From Azospirillales bacterium (GTDB lineage Bacteria; Pseudomonadota; Alphaproteobacteria; Azospirillales; Azospirillaceae), in assembly GCA_044343785.1 (NCBI GenBank), contig JBIJED010000001.1, positions 1 to 33,179 of the forward strand: a DNA stretch of 33,179 bases, written 5' to 3'. Position 1 is the first letter of the stretch. The number at the start of each line of letters is the position of its first letter. Below the pieces are notes generated by a model. That model saw only the letters and a program-made list of their open reading frames with translations. It did no database searches and was not told where the DNA came from. Of this stretch, positions 4,196 to 29,577 are shown one piece after another. The position numbers and the translations under genes are program-made.

Positions 4196-6838
4196 ATGCT
4201 GGACAAGACCTACGAGCCCGCCGCCGTCGAGGGACGCACCTACGAGGCCTGGGAAGCGTCGGGCGTCTTCGGCGCGCAGGTCGGATCGAACCGCGTCCCC
4301 TTCACGGTCATGATGCCGCCGCCCAACGTGACGGGCAGCCTGCACATGGGCCACGCGCTCAACATGACCCTGCAGGACGTCACGATCCGCTATCGCCGGA
4401 TGAAGGGGCACGACGCCCTCTGGCAACCCGGCACCGACCACGCGGGCATCGCCACGCAGATGGTGGTGGAGCGCCAGCTGGCCGAACAGGGCAAGAGCCG
4501 CCAGGACCTCGGCCGCGCCGCGTTCCTCGACAAGGTCTGGGAATGGAAGGCCTATTCCGGCGGGACCATCACCGGGCAGCTTCGCCGCCTGGGCGCGTCG
4601 GCCGATTGGCCGCGCGAGCGCTTCACGATGGACGAGGGGCTCAACCGCGCGGTCCGCAAGGTCTTCGTCGAACTCTACCGCCAGGGCCTGATCTACAAGG
4701 ACAAGCGGCTGGTCAACTGGGACCCGAAGCTGCACACGGCGATCTCGGACCTCGAGGTGGAGCAGCGCGAGGTGCAGGGCAGCCTGTGGCACTTCCGCTA
4801 TCCGGTCGAGGGTATGGAGGGGCGGTTCATCACCGTCGCCACCACCCGGCCGGAGACCATGCTGGGCGACACCGCGGTCGCGGTGCATCCCGACGATCCG
4901 CGCTATGCCGACCTGATCGGGCGCCACGCGGTCCTGCCCATCGTCGGCCGCCGCATCCGCATCGTCGCCGATGACTACGCGGATCCGGAGACGGGGTCGG
5001 GTGCGGTGAAGATCACGCCCGCGCACGACTTCAACGATTTCGAGGTCGGCCGCCGTCACGGGCTCGAACTCATCAACGTGTTCGACCGCGACGCCCGGCT
5101 CAACGAGAACGCGCCCGAGGCCTACCGCGGCCTCGACCGGTACGACGCGCGCAAGACGATCGTCGCGGAGATGGAGGGGCTCGGCCTCGTCGAGAAGATC
5201 GAGCCGCACGTCCACAAGGTGCCGCACGGCGACCGTTCCGGCGTGGCGATCGAGCCGTGGCTGACCGACCAGTGGTACTGCGACGCGGCCACCCTGGCGA
5301 AGCCCGCCATCGCGGCGGTCGAGGAGGGGCGGACGGTGTTCGTGCCCAGGACCTGGGAGAACACCTACTTCGAGTGGATGCGCAACATCCAGCCCTGGTG
5401 CATCAGCCGCCAGCTCTGGTGGGGCCACCAGATCCCCGCTTGGTACGACGGCGACGGCAACGTGTTCGTCGCCGAGACGGAAGCCGAGGCCCAGGCCCTC
5501 GCCCGGGCGAAGCACGGGCGGGACGTGCCGCTGGAGCGCGACGCCGACGTGCTCGACACCTGGTTCTCCTCGGCCCTCTGGCCCTTCTCCACGCTGGGAT
5601 GGCCGGACGATTTGCCCGAGGTGAAGCGCTACTATCCCGGCGACGTCCTCGTCACGGGCTTCGACATCATCTTCTTCTGGGTCGCCCGGATGATGATGAT
5701 GGGCCTGCACTTCATGGGCGACGTGCCCTTCCGCAAGGTCTACATCCACGCCCTCGTGCGCGACGAGCGCGGGCAGAAGATGTCGAAGTCGAAGGGCAAC
5801 GTCATCGACCCGCTGCAGCTGATCGACAGCTACGGTGCGGACGCGCTCCGCTTCACGATGGCGGCGCTGGCCGCCCAGGGCCGCGACGTGAAGCTCTCGG
5901 CCCAGCGTGTCGAGGGCTATCGGAACTTCGTCACCAAGGTCTGGAACGCCGCGCGGTTCGGCCAGATGAACGGCTGCGCACCGGTCGCGGGGTTCGACCC
6001 CCGCACCGTGCGCCTGACGGTCGACCGCTGGGTCATCGGCGAACTGGCCGAATGCGCGCAGCGCACGGCGCAGGCGCTGGAGGCCTTCCGCTTCAACGAC
6101 GCCGCCGGCGCCCTCTACCAGTTCCTCTGGGGCACCTTCTGCGACTGGTACATCGAGGTCTCGAAGCCGATCCTCCAGGGCGAGGACGAGGCGGCCAAGG
6201 CGGAGGTGCGCGCCACCTTCGCCTGGGTGCTCGATCGGGCCCTGCATCTCCTCCACCCGCTGATGCCGTTCGTGACGGAGGAACTCCACGCCCAGTTCCG
6301 GACCGACACGAGCTGGCTCGTCTCCTCGGCGTGGCCCGAGATCGGAGCGGACATGGTCGACGCGGACGCGGCGGCCGAGATGAACTGGGTGGTGCGGATC
6401 GTCTCCGCCGTGCGCACGGCGCGTGCCGAGGTCAACGTGCCGCCGGGCGCGCAGATCCCGCTGCGCCTGAAGGACGCGAGCCCCCTCGTCACGCAGCGCC
6501 TCGACCGCCATCGCGACCTGATCCTGCGCCTCGCCCGCCTGTCCGATGCCGGTGCTCTGGACGGCGACGTTCCGCAGGGCGCCGTCCAGGCGGTGATCGA
6601 GGATGCGACGGTGGTGCTTCCGCTGGCCGGGATCGTCGATCTCGACCAGGAGCGGGCACGGCTGCGCAAGGAGATCGCCAGGCTCGACGACGAGGTCGCG
6701 AAGATCGACCGGAAGCTCGGCAATCCGGACTTCCTGGCGCGGGCGCCGGAAGACGTGGTCGACGAGCAGAAGGCGCGGCGGGAAGAGGCGCAGGAGGTGC
6801 TGTCGCGCCTCAGGGGCGCGCTCGACCGTCTCGGCTGA
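4196..6838 (+). CDS. valS: Valine--tRNA ligase
   Basis: ATG at 4196 (MLDKTYEPAAVE...) inside ORF 4160..6838, whose listed start is TTG. Class I motifs: HIGH-like SLHMGHAL and KMSKSKGN. C-terminal coiled coil. Confidence 0.97.
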   Translation: MLDKTYEPAAVEGRTYEAWEASGVFGAQVGSNRVPFTVMMPPPNVTGSLHMGHALNMTLQDVTIRYRRMKGHDALWQPGTDHAGIATQMVVERQLAEQGKSRQDLGRAAFLDKVWEWKAYSGGTITGQLRRLGASADWPRERFTMDEGLNRAVRKVFVELYRQGLIYKDKRLVNWDPKLHTAISDLEVEQREVQGSLWHFRYPVEGMEGRFITVATTRPETMLGDTAVAVHPDDPRYADLIGRHAVLPIVGRRIRIVADDYADPETGSGAVKITPAHDFNDFEVGRRHGLELINVFDRDARLNENAPEAYRGLDRYDARKTIVAEMEGLGLVEKIEPHVHKVPHGDRSGVAIEPWLTDQWYCDAATLAKPAIAAVEEGRTVFVPRTWENTYFEWMRNIQPWCISRQLWWGHQIPAWYDGDGNVFVAETEAEAQALARAKHGRDVPLERDADVLDTWFSSALWPFSTLGWPDDLPEVKRYYPGDVLVTGFDIIFFWVARMMMMGLHFMGDVPFRKVYIHALVRDERGQKMSKSKGNVIDPLQLIDSYGADALRFTMAALAAQGRDVKLSAQRVEGYRNFVTKVWNAARFGQMNGCAPVAGFDPRTVRLTVDRWVIGELAECAQRTAQALEAFRFNDAAGALYQFLWGTFCDWYIEVSKPILQGEDEAAKAEVRATFAWVLDRALHLLHPLMPFVTEELHAQFRTDTSWLVSSAWPEIGADMVDADAAAEMNWVVRIVSAVRTARAEVNVPPGAQIPLRLKDASPLVTQRLDRHRDLILRLARLSDAGALDGDVPQGAVQAVIEDATVVLPLAGIVDLDQERARLRKEIARLDDEVAKIDRKLGNPDFLARAPEDVVDEQKARREEAQEVLSRLRGALDRLG

Positions 6839-14705: not shown

Positions 14706-16271
14706 ATGCTCCAGTTCCCCCGTTGGAAGATCATCACCATCATCGTCGCGTGCCTGCTCGGCTTCGTGTACGCGGCGCCGAACGTGCTTCCGCGGAGCGT
14801 CACCGACCGGCTCGAGGGGCTCCCCTCCTGGCTTCCCGGACGGACGATCAGCCTCGGTCTCGACCTTCAGGGTGGCTCGCACCTGCTGCTTCAGGTCGAA
14901 TCCCGCGCGGTCGTCCAGGAGCGGCTGAACGGCCTGCTCGACGAGATGCGGACGCGGCTGAGGACGGCGAACATCGGCTATCTCGACCTGCGCGTCGAAG
15001 GAAACGGCGTCGTCTTCACGGTGCGCGAGGCCGCCCAGATCGCACGGGCGCAGGAGGCGGCCCGCGCGGCCGAGAGCGATCTCGTCACCTCGGCCGACGG
15101 AACCCGCGTGACCGTCGCCCTGACGGAGGCGGCCATCACGGCCCGCCGGCGGCAGGCGGTGGACCAGTCGATCGAGATCGTGCGCCGCCGCGTCGACGAG
15201 ACGGGGACGCGCGAACCCCTCATCCAGCGGCAGGGCGAGGACCGCATCGTCCTCCAGTTGCCCGGCATCGACGATCCGGAGCGGGTCAAACGCCTGCTCG
15301 GCCAGACGGCCAAGCTCAGCTTCCGCTTCGTCGACGAGACGGTGGGCCCGCAGGACCTCGCCCAGGGACGCGTGCCCGCCGGGATCGAGGTCCTGCCCAA
15401 CGCCGACCGCGGCGGCCTGATCGCCGTTCAGCGGCGGGTGATGGTCAGCGGCGACACGCTGGTCGACAGCCAGCCGTCCTTCCAGAACGGTCAGCCGGTC
15501 GTCAGCTTCCGCTTCGACAGCATCGGCGCGCGCCGGTTCGCCGACGCGACCCGGGACAACGTCGGGCGTGCCTTCGCCATCGTGCTGGACGACCGGGTGA
15601 TCAGCGCCCCCGTCATCCGCGAGCCGATCCTGGGCGGGTCGGGCGTCATCTCCGGAAGCTTCACGACCCAATCGGCCAGCGACCTCGCGCTGCTGCTGCG
15701 TGCGGGCGCCCTGCCCGCCCCCCTCACGGTGCTGGAGGAGCGGACGGTCGGCCCGGGCCTGGGCGCCGATTCGATCGCCGCGGGCGAGATCGCCTCCATC
15801 GCGGGCCTCGGGCTCGTCGTCGTGCTGATGGTGGTCGGCTACGGCCTGTTCGGCGTGTTCGCGATCGCCGCGCTCCTCATCAACATGGTCTTCATCTTCG
15901 CCTTCATGTCGCTCCTCCAGGCGACGCTGACGCTGCCGGGCATCGCCGGCATCGTGCTGTCGATCGGCATGGCGGTGGACGCGAACGTGCTGATCTACGA
16001 GCGCATGCGGGAGGAGATGCGGGCCGGGCGGTCGGTCATGGCCGTCATCGACGCGGGCTACAGCCGCGCGATGAGCGCCATCGTCGATTCGAACATCACC
16101 AGCCTGATCGCCTGCCTCCTGCTCTACGCCTTCGGAACCGGGCCGGTGCGCGGCTTCGCCGTCACCCTCGGCGTCGGAATCACCGCGTCGATGTTCACCG
16201 CCATCATGGTCACCCGCCTGATGATCGTGACGTGGATGCGCCGCACCCGTCCCAAGGCGATCCCCATCTGA
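14706..16271 (+). CDS. secD: Protein translocase subunit SecD
   Basis: 521 aa. N-terminal TM helix, large periplasmic domain, C-terminal six-TM block (LPGIAGIVLSIGMAVDANVLIYERMREE...). Confidence 0.95.
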   Translation: MLQFPRWKIITIIVACLLGFVYAAPNVLPRSVTDRLEGLPSWLPGRTISLGLDLQGGSHLLLQVESRAVVQERLNGLLDEMRTRLRTANIGYLDLRVEGNGVVFTVREAAQIARAQEAARAAESDLVTSADGTRVTVALTEAAITARRRQAVDQSIEIVRRRVDETGTREPLIQRQGEDRIVLQLPGIDDPERVKRLLGQTAKLSFRFVDETVGPQDLAQGRVPAGIEVLPNADRGGLIAVQRRVMVSGDTLVDSQPSFQNGQPVVSFRFDSIGARRFADATRDNVGRAFAIVLDDRVISAPVIREPILGGSGVISGSFTTQSASDLALLLRAGALPAPLTVLEERTVGPGLGADSIAAGEIASIAGLGLVVVLMVVGYGLFGVFAIAALLINMVFIFAFMSLLQATLTLPGIAGIVLSIGMAVDANVLIYERMREEMRAGRSVMAVIDAGYSRAMSAIVDSNITSLIACLLLYAFGTGPVRGFAVTLGVGITASMFTAIMVTRLMIVTWMRRTRPKAIPI

Positions 16272-16299
16272 GCCGGGGCGGCGCCCCGGCGGAGGCCCG

Positions 16300-16677
16300 A
16301 TGGTCGACATCACGCCGATCATTCCCGCCGACCGGCAGGTCATCGACACCTACGGTCCCGGCATCTTCCGTGTCGCGAACACGATCCACCGGACACCGCT
16401 GATCGTGTTCCCCGACCGGACGCTGCCCTGGTCGCCCCCGGCGTTCGAGGCCCTGTCGGTGGCCGACTTCGCCCCGGTCGTCGAGCGCGCGGCGGAGGTC
16501 GGGGTGGTCCTGCTGGGCTGCGGTCCGCGGATGCTTCCCGTGCCACGCGCGCTGCGCCAGGCCGTGCGCGACGCCGGCATCGTCATGGATCCGATGGACA
16601 CCGGGGCCGCCTGCCGGACCTACAACGTGCTCCTCGCCGAGGGGCGGCGCGTCGCGGCCGTGCTCTACATGGTCTGA
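16300..16677 (+). CDS. Mth938-like/DUF498 protein (NDUFAF3 homologue)
   Basis: 125 aa. IDTYGPGIFRVANTIHRTPLIVFPD...VVLLGCGPRMLPVPRALRQAVRDAGIVMDPMDTGAACRTYNVLLAEGRRVAAVL matches the DUF498 pattern, including AACRTYN. Confidence 0.85.
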   Translation: MVDITPIIPADRQVIDTYGPGIFRVANTIHRTPLIVFPDRTLPWSPPAFEALSVADFAPVVERAAEVGVVLLGCGPRMLPVPRALRQAVRDAGIVMDPMDTGAACRTYNVLLAEGRRVAAVLYMV

Positions 16678-16710
16678 GTTCAGTCAGGCCGCACAGGACG
16701 GATTCCGCCT

Positions 16711-17604
16711 TCATCCCGTGACGAGGTGAAGGGCGGTGTCCGATGGGGCGACGGTCACGCGCCGTCCCCAGTCGAACGGGAGATAATCCTGTTCCATGCC
16801 ATCGGCGAATATCACGCCACCATCGTTCATCCGCGACGTGACCTCGATCGACGTACCGACGAGTTTGCCGGCCCGCAGGCTCGTGCCGGTCACGATGCTC
16901 GGGAACGGCTCCCGAACGAAGTACGCAACGGCCTGCTCGTCTGGAGCGAGGGCCACCTGCATCCCCACCGATTCCATGATCGAACGGGCCCAACCGGTGG
17001 CGCCGGTGCCCGAGGCGACGATCAGGCCGCTGGAACTCTGGTTCTCCTGCCCGTCGCCGACCGCGAGACCGTAGCGCGCCGACTGGTGGCTTCGATGCCC
17101 GACGAACACTTCGTTGAGCGCAAGCAGGCGTTCGCCGGAATCGAGCCGAGCCTCGACCATCGTCCGGCGGTCGACCGGGGCTTGTCCGCTCGCCGCGGCA
17201 CGCAGCAGGTCCGCCAGACGCCGCGCCGGCACCCGAACCAGAACGCCGTCGTAAAGGTCCGGCGACGGGTTCACGCCGAGCACGGGCTGGCCGGCGAGGT
17301 ATTTGGCGACGTTGGCGACCAGACCGTCCTGGCCGACGGGCACGATGACGTCCTCCGGCCCGAACTGGAACCTGTCGAGATCGGGACGGCGCACGTGAGC
17401 CTGCCGCCAGTCCTCCGGCACCGCGAGCCGCGCCAGTCTCAAGGCGTCGCGCAACTGACGGTCGCGCGACTCCAACGCCTCGATGCTCTGGCCACGGGTC
17501 TCCAGGAAGAACCGGGCCTGCTCGCGCGTGGAGTGCCGCGCGAGCAACAGTTCGTGGTCACTCTCCCGCGTGACGAAGACCGCACGAGGGCTGTTGGTCG
17601 GCAT
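16711..17604 (-). CDS. NAD-kinase-fold (ATP-NAD kinase/DAGK superfamily) protein, non-canonical
   Basis: ATG at 17604 (MPTNSPRAVFVTRESD...) with GAGG 7 nt upstream. The longer 17667 start would overlap the SPFH gene by 56 nt. NADK-family motifs are present in variant form: VIVPVGQDGLVANV (the GGDG motif reads GQDG), LALNEVFVGH (NE motif), SSSGLIVASGTGATGWARS (Gly-rich motif). Confidence 0.75.
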   Translation of the reverse strand: MPTNSPRAVFVTRESDHELLLARHSTREQARFFLETRGQSIEALESRDRQLRDALRLARLAVPEDWRQAHVRRPDLDRFQFGPEDVIVPVGQDGLVANVAKYLAGQPVLGVNPSPDLYDGVLVRVPARRLADLLRAAASGQAPVDRRTMVEARLDSGERLLALNEVFVGHRSHQSARYGLAVGDGQENQSSSGLIVASGTGATGWARSIMESVGMQVALAPDEQAVAYFVREPFPSIVTGTSLRAGKLVGTSIEVTSRMNDGGVIFADGMEQDYLPFDWGRRVTVAPSDTALHLVTG

Positions 17605-17611
17605 GGCCGCC

Positions 17612-18598
17612 TCACTGTGCGGGGAGTGTGGGGACCTGGCGTCGGAACTCGCCCAGGATGCTGGCAAGCAGATCCGGCGTGATGTTCAGATGCTCGATCT
17701 TGTCCACCTTCCCCGCCAGCTGGCGCGCGGCGAGGCCGAGCAGGATCGATGGCGGCAGATCGCTGTAGACGGCGACGCGCGCCCGTTCGGCGTCCGCCTT
17801 CGCGCCCTCGACGAGGCGGATGCGCTCCGCCTCGGCCGCCGCCTCGATCTGCTTCGCCGCGGCGGCGCCCGCCGAGCGCGCACGGGCGATCGCAGCCTCC
17901 TCCGCCACGAGCTGTTGCGCACGACGGGCGAGTTCGGTCTTGTTGGCGAGTTCGTTTTCGGCGATCGCGCGCTCCTTCTCGACCGCGAGAGCGCGACGTT
18001 CGAACGTCGCCTGATCCGCCTTCTGCTGGAGCGCCTCGAACGTCGGCGCTTGGAGTGCGCGTTCCAACTCGGTGCTCGGCGCGAGGCCGGTGAGCCGAAC
18101 CGCGACGACCTCGAGGCCGATCTCTCCCAGACCGGGGTCGTTGGCCAGCGCGTCCATCAGCGCGACGCGCAGGGCGCCCGGACCCGCATCGAGGAGCGCC
18201 TGCACGGAAGCCCGCGCGAGGTATTGGGTCACCGCCTGATTGACCAGCCCAGCGAAGCGCGTCTCGATCCGCTGGATGGGCTCGGCGGTCCAACGTCCGT
18301 TTTGCAGGCTGATGGTGAAGTCGACGCGCGCGGCGAGACGTTCCGGGTCGGCGACCCGCCAGGTCAACGTGCCCTGCACCGCGACGGTCTGGAAATCCTG
18401 GCTCCGACTCTTCACGAACAGCGCCATCTCGCGGTCGTCCATCGGGACCTCCGCGATGCTTGCGGTCTCAGGCCGGAACCAGAAGACAAGACCGCGTCCG
18501 CTCTGCAGCACGCGCCCCTTGCCGTACTGGATGACGTGGCTGCTCGCGTCGGCGCGCAGTTGGGCGGCGAGGCCGTAGTTGCGCATCTGTGCCATCAT
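17612..18598 (-). CDS. SPFH/Band-7 (stomatin-prohibitin-flotillin) domain protein with C-terminal coiled coil and no N-terminal TM helix
   Basis: Start ATGATG at 18598/18595, preceded by AAGGAGAGGA. The rest of ORF 17612..18937 is a spurious upstream extension over the nrtR-like gene. SPFH core: VIQYGKGRVLQSGRGLVFWFRP...VAVQGTLTWRVADPERL...GLEVVAVRLTGLAPSTELERALQAP. This is followed by an Ala/Glu/Arg-rich coiled coil. Confidence 0.8.
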   Translation of the reverse strand: MMAQMRNYGLAAQLRADASSHVIQYGKGRVLQSGRGLVFWFRPETASIAEVPMDDREMALFVKSRSQDFQTVAVQGTLTWRVADPERLAARVDFTISLQNGRWTAEPIQRIETRFAGLVNQAVTQYLARASVQALLDAGPGALRVALMDALANDPGLGEIGLEVVAVRLTGLAPSTELERALQAPTFEALQQKADQATFERRALAVEKERAIAENELANKTELARRAQQLVAEEAAIARARSAGAAAAKQIEAAAEAERIRLVEGAKADAERARVAVYSDLPPSILLGLAARQLAGKVDKIEHLNITPDLLASILGEFRRQVPTLPAQ

Positions 18599-19329
18599 TC
18601 CTCTCCTTCCGTCTTGCGGTAGCGATAGAGTTCGGCCGGACGGAACGAGGCACCCGTCTCGCGCTCGCCCGTCGCCTCCAGACAACCGCGATCGAGCATG
18701 CGGCGTCGGAAGGCAGGTTTGTTGAGCTTGGTGTCGAGGATCGCCTCGTGGATGTCCTGCAGCGCGCGCAGGGTGAAGCGCTCGGGCAGCAGGGCGAAGG
18801 CGATCCCGGAATAGTCCAGCTTGCCGCGCAGGCGCCGGACCGCGAGGCCGAGCATCGTCCCGTGATCGAACGCCAGCGGCAGGGGATCGCCGTCGCCGAG
18901 ACGCGCCTCGACGGGGCCGCCCCTGGCGCCGGCCCACGGGACGCCGATCTCCGCGAGCGCCAGCCCGGGTGCGGATTTCAGGGCCGCCGCGAACCGGTCC
19001 GCCGGCAGGAGCGCGAAATAGGCCACGCTGACGATCCGCATCCGCGGATCGCGATCGACCGCCCCGAAGGTGTAGAGCTGCTCGAGATAGGCGTCCGTCA
19101 TCCGGGCCTTGGCCGAGAGAATGCGCCGTGCCGCATCGTCGAGGCTTTCGCCGATGCCGACGAAGCCGCCCGGTAGTGCCCAGGCTCCCGCGAATGGATG
19201 GCGCTCGCGTCGTGTCAGAAGGACGGCGGGCGATCCTTCGACCACGCTCATCAGGATCAGGTCCACGGCGACGGACGGCCGAACGAAGGCCGTGGCGTCA
19301 TCGCTTTCGAGATACTCGGCCTCGCTCAT
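18595..19329 (-). CDS. nrtR: NrtR-type regulator: degenerate Nudix domain fused to a C-terminal winged-helix DNA-binding domain
   Basis: ATG at 19329 (the ORF track starts one codon earlier, at a GTG). The Nudix box region GGFVGIGESLDDAARRILSAKARM keeps GX5E but has lost the REUXEE glutamates. The C-terminus FTLRALQDIHEAILDTKLNKPAFRRRMLDRGCLEATGERETGASFRPAELYRYRK matches the NrtR wHTH signature as I remember it (FTL..LQ..YE..LG..LDK.NFRRK....L...G.....RPA.LY.F). Confidence 0.8.
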   Translation of the reverse strand: MSEAEYLESDDATAFVRPSVAVDLILMSVVEGSPAVLLTRRERHPFAGAWALPGGFVGIGESLDDAARRILSAKARMTDAYLEQLYTFGAVDRDPRMRIVSVAYFALLPADRFAAALKSAPGLALAEIGVPWAGARGGPVEARLGDGDPLPLAFDHGTMLGLAVRRLRGKLDYSGIAFALLPERFTLRALQDIHEAILDTKLNKPAFRRRMLDRGCLEATGERETGASFRPAELYRYRKTEGEE

Positions 19330-19359
19330 CACCGCGCACCTTACATCTAAGATGCACGT

Positions 19360-19388
19360 TACATATTTCTATCTTGCATATATGTCAA
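19360..19388 (-). promoter_or_regulatory. Sigma70-type promoter of the nrtR-SPFH-NADK-like operon, overlapped by an inverted repeat
   Basis: On the minus strand: perfect -35 TTGACA (19388-19383), 17-nt spacer, -10 TATGTA (19365-19360), about 30 nt upstream of the ATG. It lies in the only strongly AT-rich island of this part of the window. The inverted repeat ACATAT (19361-19366) N13 ATATGT (19380-19385) spans the -10 to -35 region. Confidence 0.45.
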
Positions 19389-19572
19389 GGGGTGCGTGCC
19401 GGGTGTGCCTCCGCAACGCGACCGCCACGGTCATGAGGGCGGGCTTCAGGTGTCCGAACGGTTCGACGATGGAGGAACGAACCCGTCCTGGCGACGCGCC
19501 CGGCGCCACAAGGTCCATGGTGTCCGTGTGCCCGCCGGTCGGAAGGCACACGGAGGGCGGTTGCCCGGAATG

Positions 19573-19600
19573 AGAAAGGGGCCCCGAAGGGCCCCTTTCA
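19573..19600. terminator. Bidirectional rho-independent terminator downstream of sodB
   Basis: AAAGGGGCCC (19575-19584), loop CGAA, GGGCCCCTTT (19589-19598). Minus-strand reading gives GAAAGGGGCCC-TTCG-GGGCCCCTTTCTCATT. Confidence 0.7.
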
Positions 19601-19624
19601 ATCACCGGCGCTGCCGGGACAGGC

Positions 19625-20227
19625 TCACTTCGCCTCGGCGAGCTTCTGGGCCACGAACTCCCAGTTCACCAGATTGTCGACGAAGGCCTTCAGGTAGTCG
19701 GCGCGGCGGTTGCGGTAGTCGATGTAGTAGCTGTGCTCCCACACGTCGCAGCCGAGGATGGCGTGCTGCCCGTGGACCAGCGGGTTCTCGCCGTTCGGGG
19801 TCTTCGTGACCTTCAGCTTGCCGCCGTCGACGACCAGCCAGCACCAGCCGCTGCCGAACTGGCCGACGCCGGCCTGGACGAACTGCTCCTTGAACGCATC
19901 GACCGACCCGAAGTCGGACTTCAGGCGGCTCTCGAGTTCGGAGGGGATCGCCCCGCCGCCGTGCGGCTTCATCGCCGGCCAGAACAGCGCGTGGTTCCAG
20001 TGCTGGCCCGCATTGTTGAAGATCGCCTGCTTCGACGCGTCGCCGAACGACGCCTTGCAGACCTCCTCGAGGCTCTTGCCGGCGAGCGGCGTGTCCTTCA
20101 CGAGGTTGTTCAGCGCCGTGACATAGGCCTGATGGTGCTTGTCGTGGTGGAACTCGAGGGTCTCCCGCGACATGTAGGGCCCCAGCGCATCGTGCGCGTA
20201 CGGCAGCGGCGGCAGTTCGAAAGCCAT
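19625..20227 (-). CDS. sodB: Iron superoxide dismutase
   Basis: ATG at 20227 with AGAGGA RBS. MAFELPPLPYAHDALGPYMSRETLEFHHDKHHQAYV...NNAGQHWNHALFW...FGSGWCWLV...DVWEHSYYIDYRNRR. The remainder of ORF 19625..20350 is an upstream extension. Confidence 0.95.
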   Translation of the reverse strand: MAFELPPLPYAHDALGPYMSRETLEFHHDKHHQAYVTALNNLVKDTPLAGKSLEEVCKASFGDASKQAIFNNAGQHWNHALFWPAMKPHGGGAIPSELESRLKSDFGSVDAFKEQFVQAGVGQFGSGWCWLVVDGGKLKVTKTPNGENPLVHGQHAILGCDVWEHSYYIDYRNRRADYLKAFVDNLVNWEFVAQKLAEAK

Positions 20228-20312: not shown

Positions 20313-21224
20313 TCAGGCGCGGGCGAAGGTGGACACCCACCCTTTCGCATGCACGACGAGACGCTGGCCGGCGGACAGCTGCACCCGGCGGGCCAGCGGA
20401 TCCGCCCGGCCCAGGCGGCGGCGCAGCGCCTGCGCCTCCAGCAGCTGTGCCCGGGCCTCCGCCCGGAGCCCGCGGTCCTTCAGCAGGGCGGGCAGCGGCG
20501 CCGAGCGCTCCAGCAGCCCGTCCACCTGCCGCAGCATCCGGTCGAAGACGGCGCGGACGGTCGCGTCGCTCGACCGCTCGACGAGCCGCTCGACCGACAC
20601 GCCCGCCTCGTCGAACCACTGGACGGGAATGTAGCAGCGCCCGAGTTCGGTCCAGTCGGACCGGCTGTCGCGCACCGTCCCCAGGATGTGGACCGCCGCG
20701 CAGAGCGCGTCGGCCGCCGGCGCGGTGGCCGACGTGTTCTCGCCATGCTGTTCCAGAACGAAGCGCCCGCCCGGCGCCGCCGCGTAGCGGCAATAGAGGA
20801 GGAGGTCGCTCCACGAGCGGCACACCTGCCCGACGGCGTCCTTGCGGACGGCCTGAAGGACCTGTCGCGCGTGCCGGTCGCCGATTCCCAGCTCGACGAG
20901 CGCCTCGCGAAGCTCGACGCCGACCTTGAGGTAGGGCCGCTTCGCACGGCCTTCGACCAGTGACTTCTCGAGGGCGTCGACGTGGTGCAGCTTCGCCTCG
21001 GGCTCGAGCAGAGGGTCGTCGGCGATGCCCTGCGCCAACTGGACGAAGCGCGCGAAGGTGAGGACGTGGGCCCTGTGGCGGCGCTTGAGGAAGCGGGGAT
21101 TCAGGAGGGCGCCCTCCCGCGGGTGGCGGGGCCGCGCCGACGGGTCGCCGGGCTTCAGCGTGATGGGGAGCGGCTTGCCGCCCCGATCGGGGTCCGTGAA
21201 GGGAGCGACGCGATGTTCAGCCAT
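20313..21224 (-). CDS. Squalene/phytoene synthase family protein (isolated, atypical first Asp-rich motif)
   Basis: 303 aa. FARFVQLAQGIADDPLLEPEAKLHHVDALEKSL resembles the HpnC/PSY N-terminal block, but the usual ADDxxD reads AQGIADD. The second motif is present: ILGTVRDSRSDWTELGRCYIP (DxxxD). Confidence 0.75.
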   Translation of the reverse strand: MAEHRVAPFTDPDRGGKPLPITLKPGDPSARPRHPREGALLNPRFLKRRHRAHVLTFARFVQLAQGIADDPLLEPEAKLHHVDALEKSLVEGRAKRPYLKVGVELREALVELGIGDRHARQVLQAVRKDAVGQVCRSWSDLLLYCRYAAAPGGRFVLEQHGENTSATAPAADALCAAVHILGTVRDSRSDWTELGRCYIPVQWFDEAGVSVERLVERSSDATVRAVFDRMLRQVDGLLERSAPLPALLKDRGLRAEARAQLLEAQALRRRLGRADPLARRVQLSAGQRLVVHAKGWVSTFARA

Positions 21225-21337: not shown

Positions 21338-22183
21338 ATGTCGGACGGTGCCCTCGCTCTCCCGTCATGCGGGCGTCTCGTCCGGACGCACGACCCCGAT
21401 CGGTTTTCCGCGAGCCTGTTCGCACCGTCGGACCGGCGCGAGGATCTGTGGGCCGTCCATGCCTTCGCCCACGAGGTCGCCAAGACGCGTGAGGTGGTCA
21501 GCCAGCCGGTGATGGGCACCATCCGCCTGCAATGGTGGCGGGAGGCGATCGACGGCATTTACGCCGGCACCCCGCGCCGGCACGAGGTGATCGACGCGTT
21601 GGCGATCGCCGTCGATCGGCGGCGCCTGCCGCGGGACCCCTTCGACGCGCTCATCGACGGCCGCGAGCGCGATCTCGAGGACGCGCCGCCCGCGACGCTC
21701 GACGACCTCCTGACGTACGCCGAGGCGACCGGGGGCCCTCCCGCGGAACTCGCGGCCCTCGTCCTGGGGGCGCCCCGTGCGATCCCGTCGGCGCGCGCGG
21801 CGGGGGCGGCCCATGCGCTCGCGGGGCTGATGCGCGCGGTGCCCTTCCACGCCCGTGCCCGCCGCCTCTTCCTGCCGGCCGATCTGCTCGCGGCGTCCGG
21901 TGTGTTCACGAACCAACTCTTCGACCTGAAGGCGCCGGCGGGGCTGGCGACCGTCGTCCGTGCGGTCGCCGAAGCGGCCGCCGCGCGCCTGTCGGACGCG
22001 CGTGCCGCCCGCGCGACCGTCCCGGGGGACGCGAGGGCGGCCGTGCTGGTCGGCACGCTCGCCGGCCTTCATCTGTCGACGCTCGCGCGGGCGGGATGGA
22101 ACCCGTTCGAGCCCCGGGTCGCCATGCGTCATCCCGCGACCCCGCTGCGCCTCGCGTGGGCGGCCGCGACGGGGCGCTGGTGA
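21338..22183 (+). CDS. Squalene/phytoene synthase family protein, NDUFAF6-like
   Basis: 281 aa. LWAVHAFAHEVAKTREVVSQPVMGTIRLQWWREAIDGIY is the pattern of the alphaproteobacterial NDUFAF6-like subgroup, which has no catalytic DDxxD. It is normally a neighbour of the Mth938-like gene and trmFO. Confidence 0.8.
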   Translation: MSDGALALPSCGRLVRTHDPDRFSASLFAPSDRREDLWAVHAFAHEVAKTREVVSQPVMGTIRLQWWREAIDGIYAGTPRRHEVIDALAIAVDRRRLPRDPFDALIDGRERDLEDAPPATLDDLLTYAEATGGPPAELAALVLGAPRAIPSARAAGAAHALAGLMRAVPFHARARRLFLPADLLAASGVFTNQLFDLKAPAGLATVVRAVAEAAAARLSDARAARATVPGDARAAVLVGTLAGLHLSTLARAGWNPFEPRVAMRHPATPLRLAWAAATGRW

Positions 22184-28717: not shown

Positions 28718-29485
28718 TCAGCCCTGGCCGGCCTCGACCACGGGATCGCCACCGAGCCCGCTGACGAGGTCGGCCACCGCCGCCGTCGCCGCCTCCAGCC
28801 CCGCCTCGTCGGTCGCGCGCAGCACCAGAGACACGCCGAAGGACTGGTTCCTGTAGAAGGGATAGCTGCCGATCTCGACCGCCGGGAACCGGTCCTGGAT
28901 CGCCGACAGCCCCTCGGCGATGATCCCTTCCGGCAACAGGCAGCGGACGGTGCGGGCGTGCATCGGCGGCCCGCCGACGAGCGTGGGCGCGATCCCGTCG
29001 AACATCGCGTGCATGATGGAGGGAACGCCCGCCATCACGTGGACGTTGCCGATCCGGAAGCCGGGCGCCTTGCTGACGGGGTTGTCGATCAGCGCGGCGC
29101 CGACGGGCGCGTTCGCCATCCGCAGCCGCGCGGCGTTCAGCTGTCCCGGCGGATAGTGCGCCTCCAGCCGGCGGCGCGCCTCCTCGTTCTGTTCGAGCGG
29201 GACGCCGAACGCCTCGGCGACGCACTCGGCCGTGATGTCGTCGTGGGTGGGGCCGATGCCGCCCGTGGTGAAGACGTAGGTCCAGCGGGACCGCAGCGCG
29301 TTCACCGCGGCGACGACGTCGGCCTTCACGTCGGGCACGACGCGCGCCTCGCGCACGCGGATGCCGAGCGCGCAAAGCCGTTCGGCGAGCCAGCCGAGGT
29401 TCGCGTCCTTGGTCCGGCCGGACAGGATCTCGTTGCCGATGACGAGGATGGCGGCGGTGGGGGCGTCGTGGGGCGTGTCGGTCAT
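28718..29485 (-). CDS. CinA N-terminal-like / MoCF-biosynthesis (MoaB-MogA fold) domain protein (COG1058-type)
   Basis: ATG at 29485 (MTDTPHDAPTAAILVIGNEILSGRTKDANLGWLAERL...FTTGGIGPTHDDIT...). Confidence 0.85.
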   Translation of the reverse strand: MTDTPHDAPTAAILVIGNEILSGRTKDANLGWLAERLCALGIRVREARVVPDVKADVVAAVNALRSRWTYVFTTGGIGPTHDDITAECVAEAFGVPLEQNEEARRRLEAHYPPGQLNAARLRMANAPVGAALIDNPVSKAPGFRIGNVHVMAGVPSIMHAMFDGIAPTLVGGPPMHARTVRCLLPEGIIAEGLSAIQDRFPAVEIGSYPFYRNQSFGVSLVLRATDEAGLEAATAAVADLVSGLGGDPVVEAGQG

Positions 29486-29577
29486 GGTGGCCGGACGATT
29501 CCACGGCGGGCCGGTCCCGCGCAACCGCCGCCCGCCGGTCTTGAACGACGCGGGGCCCAGCGGATAGGGTCCCGGCG

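Follow-up and report, generated by a model that had tools for sequence, protein, structure and literature searches.

Why should a protein with a NAD-kinase fold be encoded in one operon with an SPFH (Band 7) protein and a regulator of the NrtR family? The question is raised by three minus-strand genes in a 33,179-nt stretch of DNA from an Azospirillales bacterium (GenBank assembly GCA_044343785.1, contig JBIJED010000001.1, positions 1 to 33,179; the whole stretch is referred to below as the window). The locus is an nrtR-nrtX-nrtY operon, a self-contained and horizontally mobile three-gene cassette. With moderate confidence, we read it as an autorepressed operon that would respond to a NAD-derived metabolite and supply an auxiliary NAD(H) kinase, NrtY, together with an SPFH scaffold partner, NrtX.

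The nrtR-nrtX-nrtY operon

The association of these three genes has itself been known since 2008, when '#nrtX-nrtY' or nrtR<#>nrtX-nrtY was listed in Streptomyces, Kineococcus, Frankia, Proteus mirabilis and Hahella with the function given as '?' (Rodionov et al., 2008; PMC2330246, Table 1). The set nrtR-nrtX-nrtY was also catalogued in a supplementary table of Leyn et al. (2016, Microb Genom) and in RegPrecise. These listings comprise NrtR, a Band 7 protein (nrtX) and a protein with a PpnK-type kinase domain (nrtY), annotated as 'function unknown' or 'putative NAD metabolism'. The window locus has the same composition, with genes of the same three families tied together behind a candidate NrtR site, and is one more case of an already catalogued regulon; the preliminary description of this DNA, which knew of no described NrtR regulon consisting of an SPFH protein and a NAD-kinase-fold kinase, was mistaken on this point. 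Whereas the published examples, from Actinobacteria and Gammaproteobacteria, are mostly divergons, the three window genes run in one direction as a single operon, their junctions overlapping or all but abutting.

Gene boundaries were checked by reading the minus strand from 16500 to 19700 together with the list of open reading frames (ORFs). The stop codon of nrtR (TGA, 18597-18595) overlaps the ATG of nrtX (18598-18596) in an ATGA at 18595-18598; an alternative nrtX start (ATG, 18595-18593), favoured by gene callers, gives a 1-nt overlap with nrtR and a product of 327 aa. Between the stop codon of nrtX (TGA, 17614-17612) and the ATG of nrtY (17604-17602) there are 7 nt, and the GAGG that precedes this ATG overlaps the nrtX stop codon (Table 1). 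The start of nrtY can be considered fixed because nearly all of the 120 homologues listed are 297 aa long, most of them aligning over the whole query. For nrtR, either GTG at 19332 or ATG at 19329 could serve, the latter being the choice of the gene callers (244 aa). At its 3' end the unit converges on a DUF498/Mth938 gene (16300-16677, plus strand), with 33 nt between the end of that gene and the nrtY stop codon. The compact three-gene unit, the ATGA overlap, the 7-nt gap with its GAGG and the convergent end had all been noted in the preliminary description and are borne out, and domain calls agree with its family assignments (an NrtR-type regulator, an SPFH protein without a transmembrane segment and a NAD-kinase fold).

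Similarity of NrtY to mitochondrial NADK2

An AlphaFold2 model of NrtY based on an alignment of 55 homologues reached a pLDDT of 96 and replaced a single-sequence model (pLDDT 38), which was discarded. Foldseek placed human NADK2 first (7r4l/7r4j, E 8e-21, TM 0.74-0.75), compared to TM values of 0.55-0.63 for the bacterial NadK structures in the same listing, and the top 50 matches listed (E 8e-21 to 3.5e-14) were all described as NAD(H) kinases save the 'putative kinase' 2an1. The family profile of NrtY gave 86 bits (E 2e-23) for NADK2 versus at most 40 bits for canonical NadK; NrtY and NADK2 are about 20% identical. NADK2 (C5orf33; PDB 7r4j, 7n29) is the best match of NrtY in sequence, profile and fold, and by these measures, one of them resting on a modelled structure, NrtY is a bacterial kinase of the NADK2/C5orf33 type.

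Residue equivalences were taken from sequence alignments read against the NADK2 literature (residue roles from PMC9245612 and PMC3535332). The catalytic Asp of NADK2 (D161) corresponds to D93 of NrtY, which is conserved in at least 90% of the family, and the nicotinamide-stacking Trp (W319) to the invariant W205; the diphosphate-binding Lys (K76) has its equivalent in R13, and the C5orf33-specific residues S306 and K317 align with S192 and T203. Within the NrtY family D93, N164, S191/S192 and W205 are conserved. NrtY shares with NADK2 the catalytic Asp and the C5orf33-type Ser/Thr/Trp (S192/T203/W205), where canonical NadK has Asp/Thr/Tyr, and nearly matches it in motif 1 (PVLGVNPSP). Unlike NADK2, it has GQDG for GGDG, no targeting peptide and no 22-47-residue EMKA dimerisation insert (about 10 residues stand at the insert site in NrtY, and NADK2 is about 24 residues longer there than the family profile), and its gene is paired with an SPFH gene and predicted to be repressed by NrtR. 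The two-domain fold, the NE/D motif (NE is kept, with N164 invariant) and the Gly-rich motif region are common to NrtY and canonical NadK/PpnK, although the third motif reads SSSGxIVxTGTGxTGW in NrtY and is STPTGSTAY-like in canonical NadK. Other differences from canonical NadK/PpnK are the scores far under the family thresholds, the weaker fold similarity (TM 0.55-0.63, as against 0.74 for NADK2) and the occurrence of NrtY as a second paralogue beside NadK.

Distribution of the cassette and coupling of nrtX to nrtY

In a collection of 185,579 species genomes (one per species), scanned with DNA patterns and then checked by tblastn, at least 525 stretches were confirmed to contain relatives of NrtY; the patterns were derived from a 9-sequence alignment, a 26-sequence alignment being too diverse. 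The best 80 of these stretches, which were used for all locus comparisons, come from about ten phyla. They represent Sphingomonadales, Hyphomicrobiales, Caulobacterales, Rhodobacterales, Kiloniellales and Acetobacteraceae; further taxa are Myxococcota, Planctomycetota, Acidobacteriota, Solirubrobacterales, Chloroflexia, Eremiobacterota and Spirochaetales.

In every one of the 80 loci nrtX lies directly upstream of nrtY, with a median gap of 4 nt and with overlapping genes in 20 of the 76 loci where the gap was measured. The median gap between nrtR and nrtX is 16.5 nt. Pairwise divergences of NrtX and NrtY are tightly correlated (r = 0.91), those of either protein and NrtR less so (0.73-0.76). 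The nrtX and nrtY genes are always adjacent and, to judge from their spacing, usually translationally coupled. Their association is far beyond chance, because the adjacency holds in 80/80 loci across phyla whose flanks are otherwise unconserved; co-occurrence of the three families, on which the preliminary description had staked its case, is overwhelmingly borne out, nrtR being adjacent in about 70 of the loci. The position of nrtR is more variable: it is on the same strand upstream (R>X>Y, the order of the window operon) in 60 loci, mostly from Alphaproteobacteria and Myxococcota, divergent in six and downstream of nrtY in two, and three more loci have a same-strand regulator match that fits neither pattern. 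The fetched DNA contained no nrtR in seven loci, three of them on truncated contigs.

Clustering of all flanking ORFs gave no further real gene family that was present in over five of the 80 loci, and Pfam scans of the nearest neighbours on both sides returned only scattered housekeeping families, save for pncA and pncB. These two genes flank the cassette in four loci (L002, L003, L010 and L017; three labelled Sphingomonas, one Sphingobium) in the arrangement pncA<#>nrtR-nrtX-nrtY-pncB, where the nicotinamidase-like pncA is divergent upstream of nrtR and shares its operator region, and pncB follows 8-9 nt past nrtY. Their presence reinforces the link of the cassette to NAD. Neither pncA, pncB nor canonical nadK was found elsewhere in the 33-kb window.

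Annotated records of Ralstonia, Rhizobium and Moraxella contain the arrangement NUDIX<>SPFH-'sugar kinase', which was also seen in ORF calls for Proteus, and a Treponema record has only the SPFH-kinase pair annotated, with no NUDIX gene. The cassette also occurs on megaplasmids and chromids. This distribution shows it to be accessory, transferable and patchily spread. A full cassette was present in a metagenome-assembled genome labelled 'Halobacteria archaeon' (L039, 4122-6894), with an NrtY 53% identical to the window protein; this probably reflects mis-binning or a recent transfer from bacteria.

The cassette was also met next to tetracycline resistance genes. In the divergent form nrtR<>nrtX-nrtY it abuts tetR(H)-tet(H) in Moraxella osloensis pNP7-1 (L086, 2094-6841), and in Proteus mirabilis it abuts tet(J) (L083, 4094-8828). 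A truncated 3' fragment of nrtY lies beside tetR(H) on small Actinobacillus tet(H) plasmids (L088, A. pleuropneumoniae pAP8_1, 53-1131), and plasmids of Psychrobacter and Proteus vulgaris likewise bear truncated nrtY fragments. Apparently, part of nrtY travelled with the tet(H) unit when the latter was mobilised.

The product of nrtX matches PF01145 (Band_7) over residues 25-201 with 49.9 bits (cut-off 23.6). No N-terminal hydrophobic segment or transmembrane anchor was found in 77 members of the NrtX family, and hydrophobic windows above 1.6 occur only inside the SPFH domain, around residues 147-165. A phmmer search with NrtX against PDB sequences returned nothing, and the family profile matched HflK and stomatin only marginally (E about 2e-3). 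SPFH genes are tightly coupled to the gene of a partner enzyme in HflK/C with FtsH and in stomatin with NfeD, and the nrtX-nrtY pair may be analogous to these. NrtX differs from HflK/C and stomatin in having no transmembrane segment, and its partner would be a soluble nucleotide kinase rather than a membrane protease.

Fusions of the two proteins, considered as a possibly common form, proved not to be: both domains were present in only one of nine long homologues. This protein, P0160 (574 aa, metagenomic), joins an NrtX-like SPFH part (residues 19-288) to an NrtY part (279-570) and, if genuine, speaks for the partnership of NrtX and NrtY proposed below.

The NrtR regulator and its candidate operator

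The nrtR product matches PF00293 (NUDIX; 41.9 bits, cut-off 21.1) and PF21906 (NrtR_WHD; 76.2 bits, cut-off 27), and aligns over its full length with Shewanella NrtR (3gz5, E 1e-29) and Bacteroides AraR (5bs6, E 3e-33). Its Nudix box is degenerate, the REUxEE core reading RILSAK in the window protein (GX5EX7-RILSAKAR). The family core is R(V/I)Lx(E/D)K; a Lys takes the place of the second Glu of the EE pair in 68 of the 72 sequences. Two catalytic glutamates have thus been lost; the characterised MsNrtR, which is non-hydrolytic, shows the same loss (RQUxEK box). NrtR is a Nudix-derived winged-helix regulator, predicted from these substitutions to be catalytically dead.

The DNA upstream of nrtR stands out by its composition, bases 19341-19390 having 32% G+C versus 70% for the window. 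A single AT-rich promoter with a perfect TTGACA had been claimed for it; the hexamer and the composition are as described, and a consensus scan of 16200-19800 called no full sigma-70 promoter, the best -10 (TATGTA) being weak. In most related loci listed TTGAC(A/T) is found at the same position upstream of nrtR, and a TAAGG element just upstream of the nrtR start recurs in many of them. The layout of the 130 bp before nrtR is conserved across phyla: TTGAC(A/T), overlapping AT-rich palindromes with half-sites of the ATATGCA/TGCATAT type and a TAAGG Shine-Dalgarno element. A public contig 99-100% identical to the window (SRR34360306_21612; L001) reads TTGATA instead of TTGACA at the -35, a natural single-base variant.

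When up to three mismatches were allowed, ATATGCA-N3-TGCATAT had only two matches in the window, at the two sites given in Table 1, where 0.04 were expected. Across the 80 loci the same class of motif gave 61 matches in 27.5 kb of promoter zones versus 12 in 874 kb elsewhere, an enrichment of about 160-fold. The AT-rich palindromes overlap the region from -35 to +1 of nrtR's own promoter and are conserved across phyla. Their geometry resembles that of the 21-bp palindromes of the NrtR family, and their placement fits an autorepressor that would occlude its own promoter, as has been proposed for NrtR generally.

The characterised NrtR regulons comprise prs-nadV in Shewanella, nadA/nadE/nadM-nadV in Synechocystis, nadABC in Mycobacterium and pncAB-nadE in Pseudomonas. 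The window nrtR is like these in the architecture of the regulator, the dead Nudix box, the predicted autoregulation and the palindromes over the promoter. It differs from them in its ATATGCA half-sites, which are unlike their GT-N7-AC core, and in its target genes, nrtX and nrtY not being enzymes of NAD synthesis or salvage (pncA/pncB join them only in the four related loci).

The upstream gene, sodB, ends in a strong terminator-like hairpin with an 11-bp G+C-rich stem, a UUCG loop and a U-rich tail (UUUCUCAUU; minimum free energy -38.8 kcal/mol, z = -3.8 versus shuffles), so the nrtRXY unit has its own promoter. A simple terminator scan of 16200-19800 gave no match and missed this hairpin too. 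No intrinsic terminator was found at the 3' end of nrtY, the 33-nt convergent spacer having no significant hairpin (z about -1).

Elements of a different kind, ATGCTC-N5-GAG(C/T)A(T/G), lie upstream of nrtR in two Methylobacterium loci (L026 and L028) and match the published NadQ consensus ttATRCTCannntGAGYATaa. Among the four complete loci without nrtR, no clear operator was found upstream of nrtX except a NadQ-like ATGCTC-N5-GAGTAG in Brevundimonas (L023, about 4900-4920), which is the sole palindrome upstream of nrtX there. These NadQ-like elements hint at possible cross-talk with NadQ or replacement by NadQ.

Table 1. Features of the nrtR-nrtX-nrtY locus (window coordinates unless stated otherwise)
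Feature	Position	Strand	Remarks
nrtR	18595..19332	-	NrtR-family regulator, Nudix-like sensor domain and winged helix
nrtX	17612..18598	-	SPFH/Band 7 protein without membrane anchor
nrtY	16711..17604	-	NAD-kinase-fold protein, NADK2/C5orf33 type
-35 hexamer TTGACA	19383..19388	-	read directly
Candidate -10 TATGTA	19360..19365	-	17 nt past the -35; 3/6 match to TATAAT; inferred only
Candidate operator region	19344..19381	.	overlapping AT-rich palindromes; ATATGCA-N3-TGCATAT-type sites at 19365-19381 and 19350-19366
Palindrome CATCTTAGATG	19344-19354		part of the candidate operator region
Shine-Dalgarno-like AAGGTG	19337..19342	-	read directly; 7 nt before the nrtR ATG (19329)
nrtY ribosome-binding site GAGG	17610..17613	-	read directly; overlaps the nrtX stop codon
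Terminator-like hairpin	19574..19599	-	behind upstream sodB; marks the 5' boundary of the nrtRXY unit
pncA and pncB of related locus L002	3711-4244 and 6903-8207		coordinates of that locus

Proposed function and its alternatives

In the mechanism we propose, NrtR would repress nrtR-nrtX-nrtY by occluding the promoter through the palindromes that overlap it. A nucleotide derived from NAD would release it, with ADP-ribose, the effector of characterised NrtRs, as the likeliest candidate. NrtY would then act as an auxiliary NAD(H) kinase beside the housekeeping NadK and replenish NADP(H) at times of high NAD turnover, and NrtX, a soluble or peripheral SPFH oligomer, would bind NrtY and scaffold, gate or stabilise it. 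The repression step is suggested by conserved sequence, whereas the effector, the substrate of NrtY and the NrtX-NrtY complex are what we infer. A bolder version, in which NrtX assembles into a soluble SPFH ring or cage, with NrtY bound to it or inside it, to give an inducible, metabolite-gated assembly producing NADP(H), and in which the eukaryotic mitochondrial NADK2/C5orf33 lineage may descend from bacterial NrtY, strikes us as quite unlikely.

Several observations weigh against the proposal of an autorepressed operon for an auxiliary NAD(H) kinase. ADP-ribose may not be the effector, since the best solved relative of the nrtR product is the arabinose-sensing AraR and the product scores 153 bits with the NCBIfam equivalog NF050029, 'ADPR responsive repressor' (cut-off 400), a score that leaves orthology to the type responsive to ADP-ribose (ADPR) not assured. 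The candidate operator has a TG-N7-CA core and sites that overlap one another, where GT-N7-AC is typical of NrtR; lineage-specific divergence of NrtR operators was remarked on by Rodionov et al. (2008; PMC2330246). In four complete loci nrtX-nrtY stand without a nearby nrtR. The P0160 fusion lacks, at its junction, ~14 residues from the start of NrtY, and could be either genuine or an artefact of assembly or deletion. In the literature on nrtX/nrtY, or on SPFH proteins with NrtR, Nudix or NAD kinase, we found no later functional study. As for NrtY, it lies below all Pfam and NCBIfam NAD-kinase thresholds: the Pfam search returned no family at E <= 0.01, and the NCBIfam NAD-kinase models gave 17-38 bits versus cut-offs of 211-470. 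It also has GQDG in place of GGDG, the second Gly being variable across the family, G(Q/R/P)DG, and NADK2 H191 has no equivalent in it (V121). Given the last two features, the substrate of NrtY could differ.

The same features, together with the missing Pfam NAD_kinase match and the low NCBIfam scores, speak for an alternative that we consider unlikely, if a genuine contender: NrtY might be a kinase for another substrate, be it NADH specifically, ADPR, nicotinic acid adenine dinucleotide, some other dinucleotide, or a lipid as in the related diacylglycerol/sphingosine kinase fold, with NrtX placing it at membrane microdomains. SPFH proteins are usually membrane-associated, as such a placement would have it. 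A precedent for NADH is the plant NADK3, a relative of C5orf33, which is a NADH kinase (PMC3535332). NrtX, however, has no membrane anchor, no lipid kinase appeared among the Foldseek matches listed, and the invariant W205 is the counterpart of the NADK2 Trp against which the nicotinamide ring stacks, a match that favours a nicotinamide dinucleotide over ADPR or a lipid. From its conserved residues, a nicotinamide dinucleotide is the most plausible substrate of NrtY.

An anti-phage or NADase-conflict module, in which infection-derived ADPR would derepress the operon, and NrtX and NrtY would protect or rebuild nucleotide pools or trigger dormancy, is very improbable. ADPR is a product of defence NADases, and the patchy spread of the cassette across many phyla in variable neighbourhoods, consistent with horizontal transfer, and its presence on megaplasmids and chromids would suit such a role. 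However, PADLOC gave no match for NrtX or NrtY (for the regulator there was only a marginal Nudix match, E 0.0085), no relative was found in 2.9 million viral contigs, no defence or mobile-element family recurred in the genes immediately next to the cassette in about 70 loci, the flanks of the window operon are housekeeping genes, and only pncA and pncB, which serve NAD salvage, recur as neighbours. The defence role suggested in the preliminary description thus found no support.

That NrtY is the ordinary housekeeping NAD kinase, next to unrelated SPFH and regulator genes, is scarcely credible and already contradicted: some sources do call it 'NAD kinase' or 'NAD(+)/NADH kinase', but it has the SPFH gene beside it in 80/80 loci with unconserved flanks, its relatives were confirmed in at least 525 stretches from 185,579 species genomes, the E. 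coli NadK query detects nothing in the window (E <= 1) or in any of the 80 loci (E <= 1e-5), and Proteus mirabilis NZ_OL790812.1 (4.09 Mb) has both an NrtY homologue (3281520-3282416) and, about 580 kb away, a canonical NadK (2698627-2699493) 74% identical to that of E. coli. The kinase-fold protein is therefore not simply the housekeeping NadK, at least not generally, in line with the preliminary description, which had called it non-canonical. The PLSDB records NZ_OL790812.1, NZ_OL790811.1 and NZ_OL790696.1 (4-4.8 Mb), labelled 'plasmid', are evidently whole chromosomes.

Neighbouring genes in the window

The flanks of the operon comprise a TolC-like gene, valS, an amino-acid ABC transporter, yajC, secD, sodB, two squalene/phytoene synthase-like genes and a trmFO-like gene. 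The two squalene/phytoene-synthase-family genes (hpnC/hpnD-like) form a divergent pair near sodB (20313-21224, minus strand, and 21338-22183, plus strand) and represent ordinary context. About 9 kb from the operon, a minus-strand gene (28718-29524) encodes a CinA/COG1058-like protein (MoCF_biosynth and FLAD1_M) of a family that we take to include ADP-ribose pyrophosphatases.

Biological implications

In the textbook view quoted in PMC9245612, bacterial NADP(H) is made by a single NAD kinase. The cassette, present in at least several hundred species of many phyla and catalogued with 'function unknown' since 2008, puts a second, NADK2-like kinase under a predicted NAD-metabolite-sensing repressor and constantly pairs it with an anchor-less SPFH protein. 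The recognition of NrtY as a bacterial counterpart of mitochondrial NADK2, the strict coupling of NrtX to NrtY and a defined candidate operator are new here and make the question of its function directly testable. If the bolder version above is true, NrtX would be the first SPFH protein to scaffold a soluble metabolic kinase, and bacteria would have a second NAD kinase that is under regulation; should NrtX indeed scaffold NrtY, the known roles of SPFH assemblies would be broadened.

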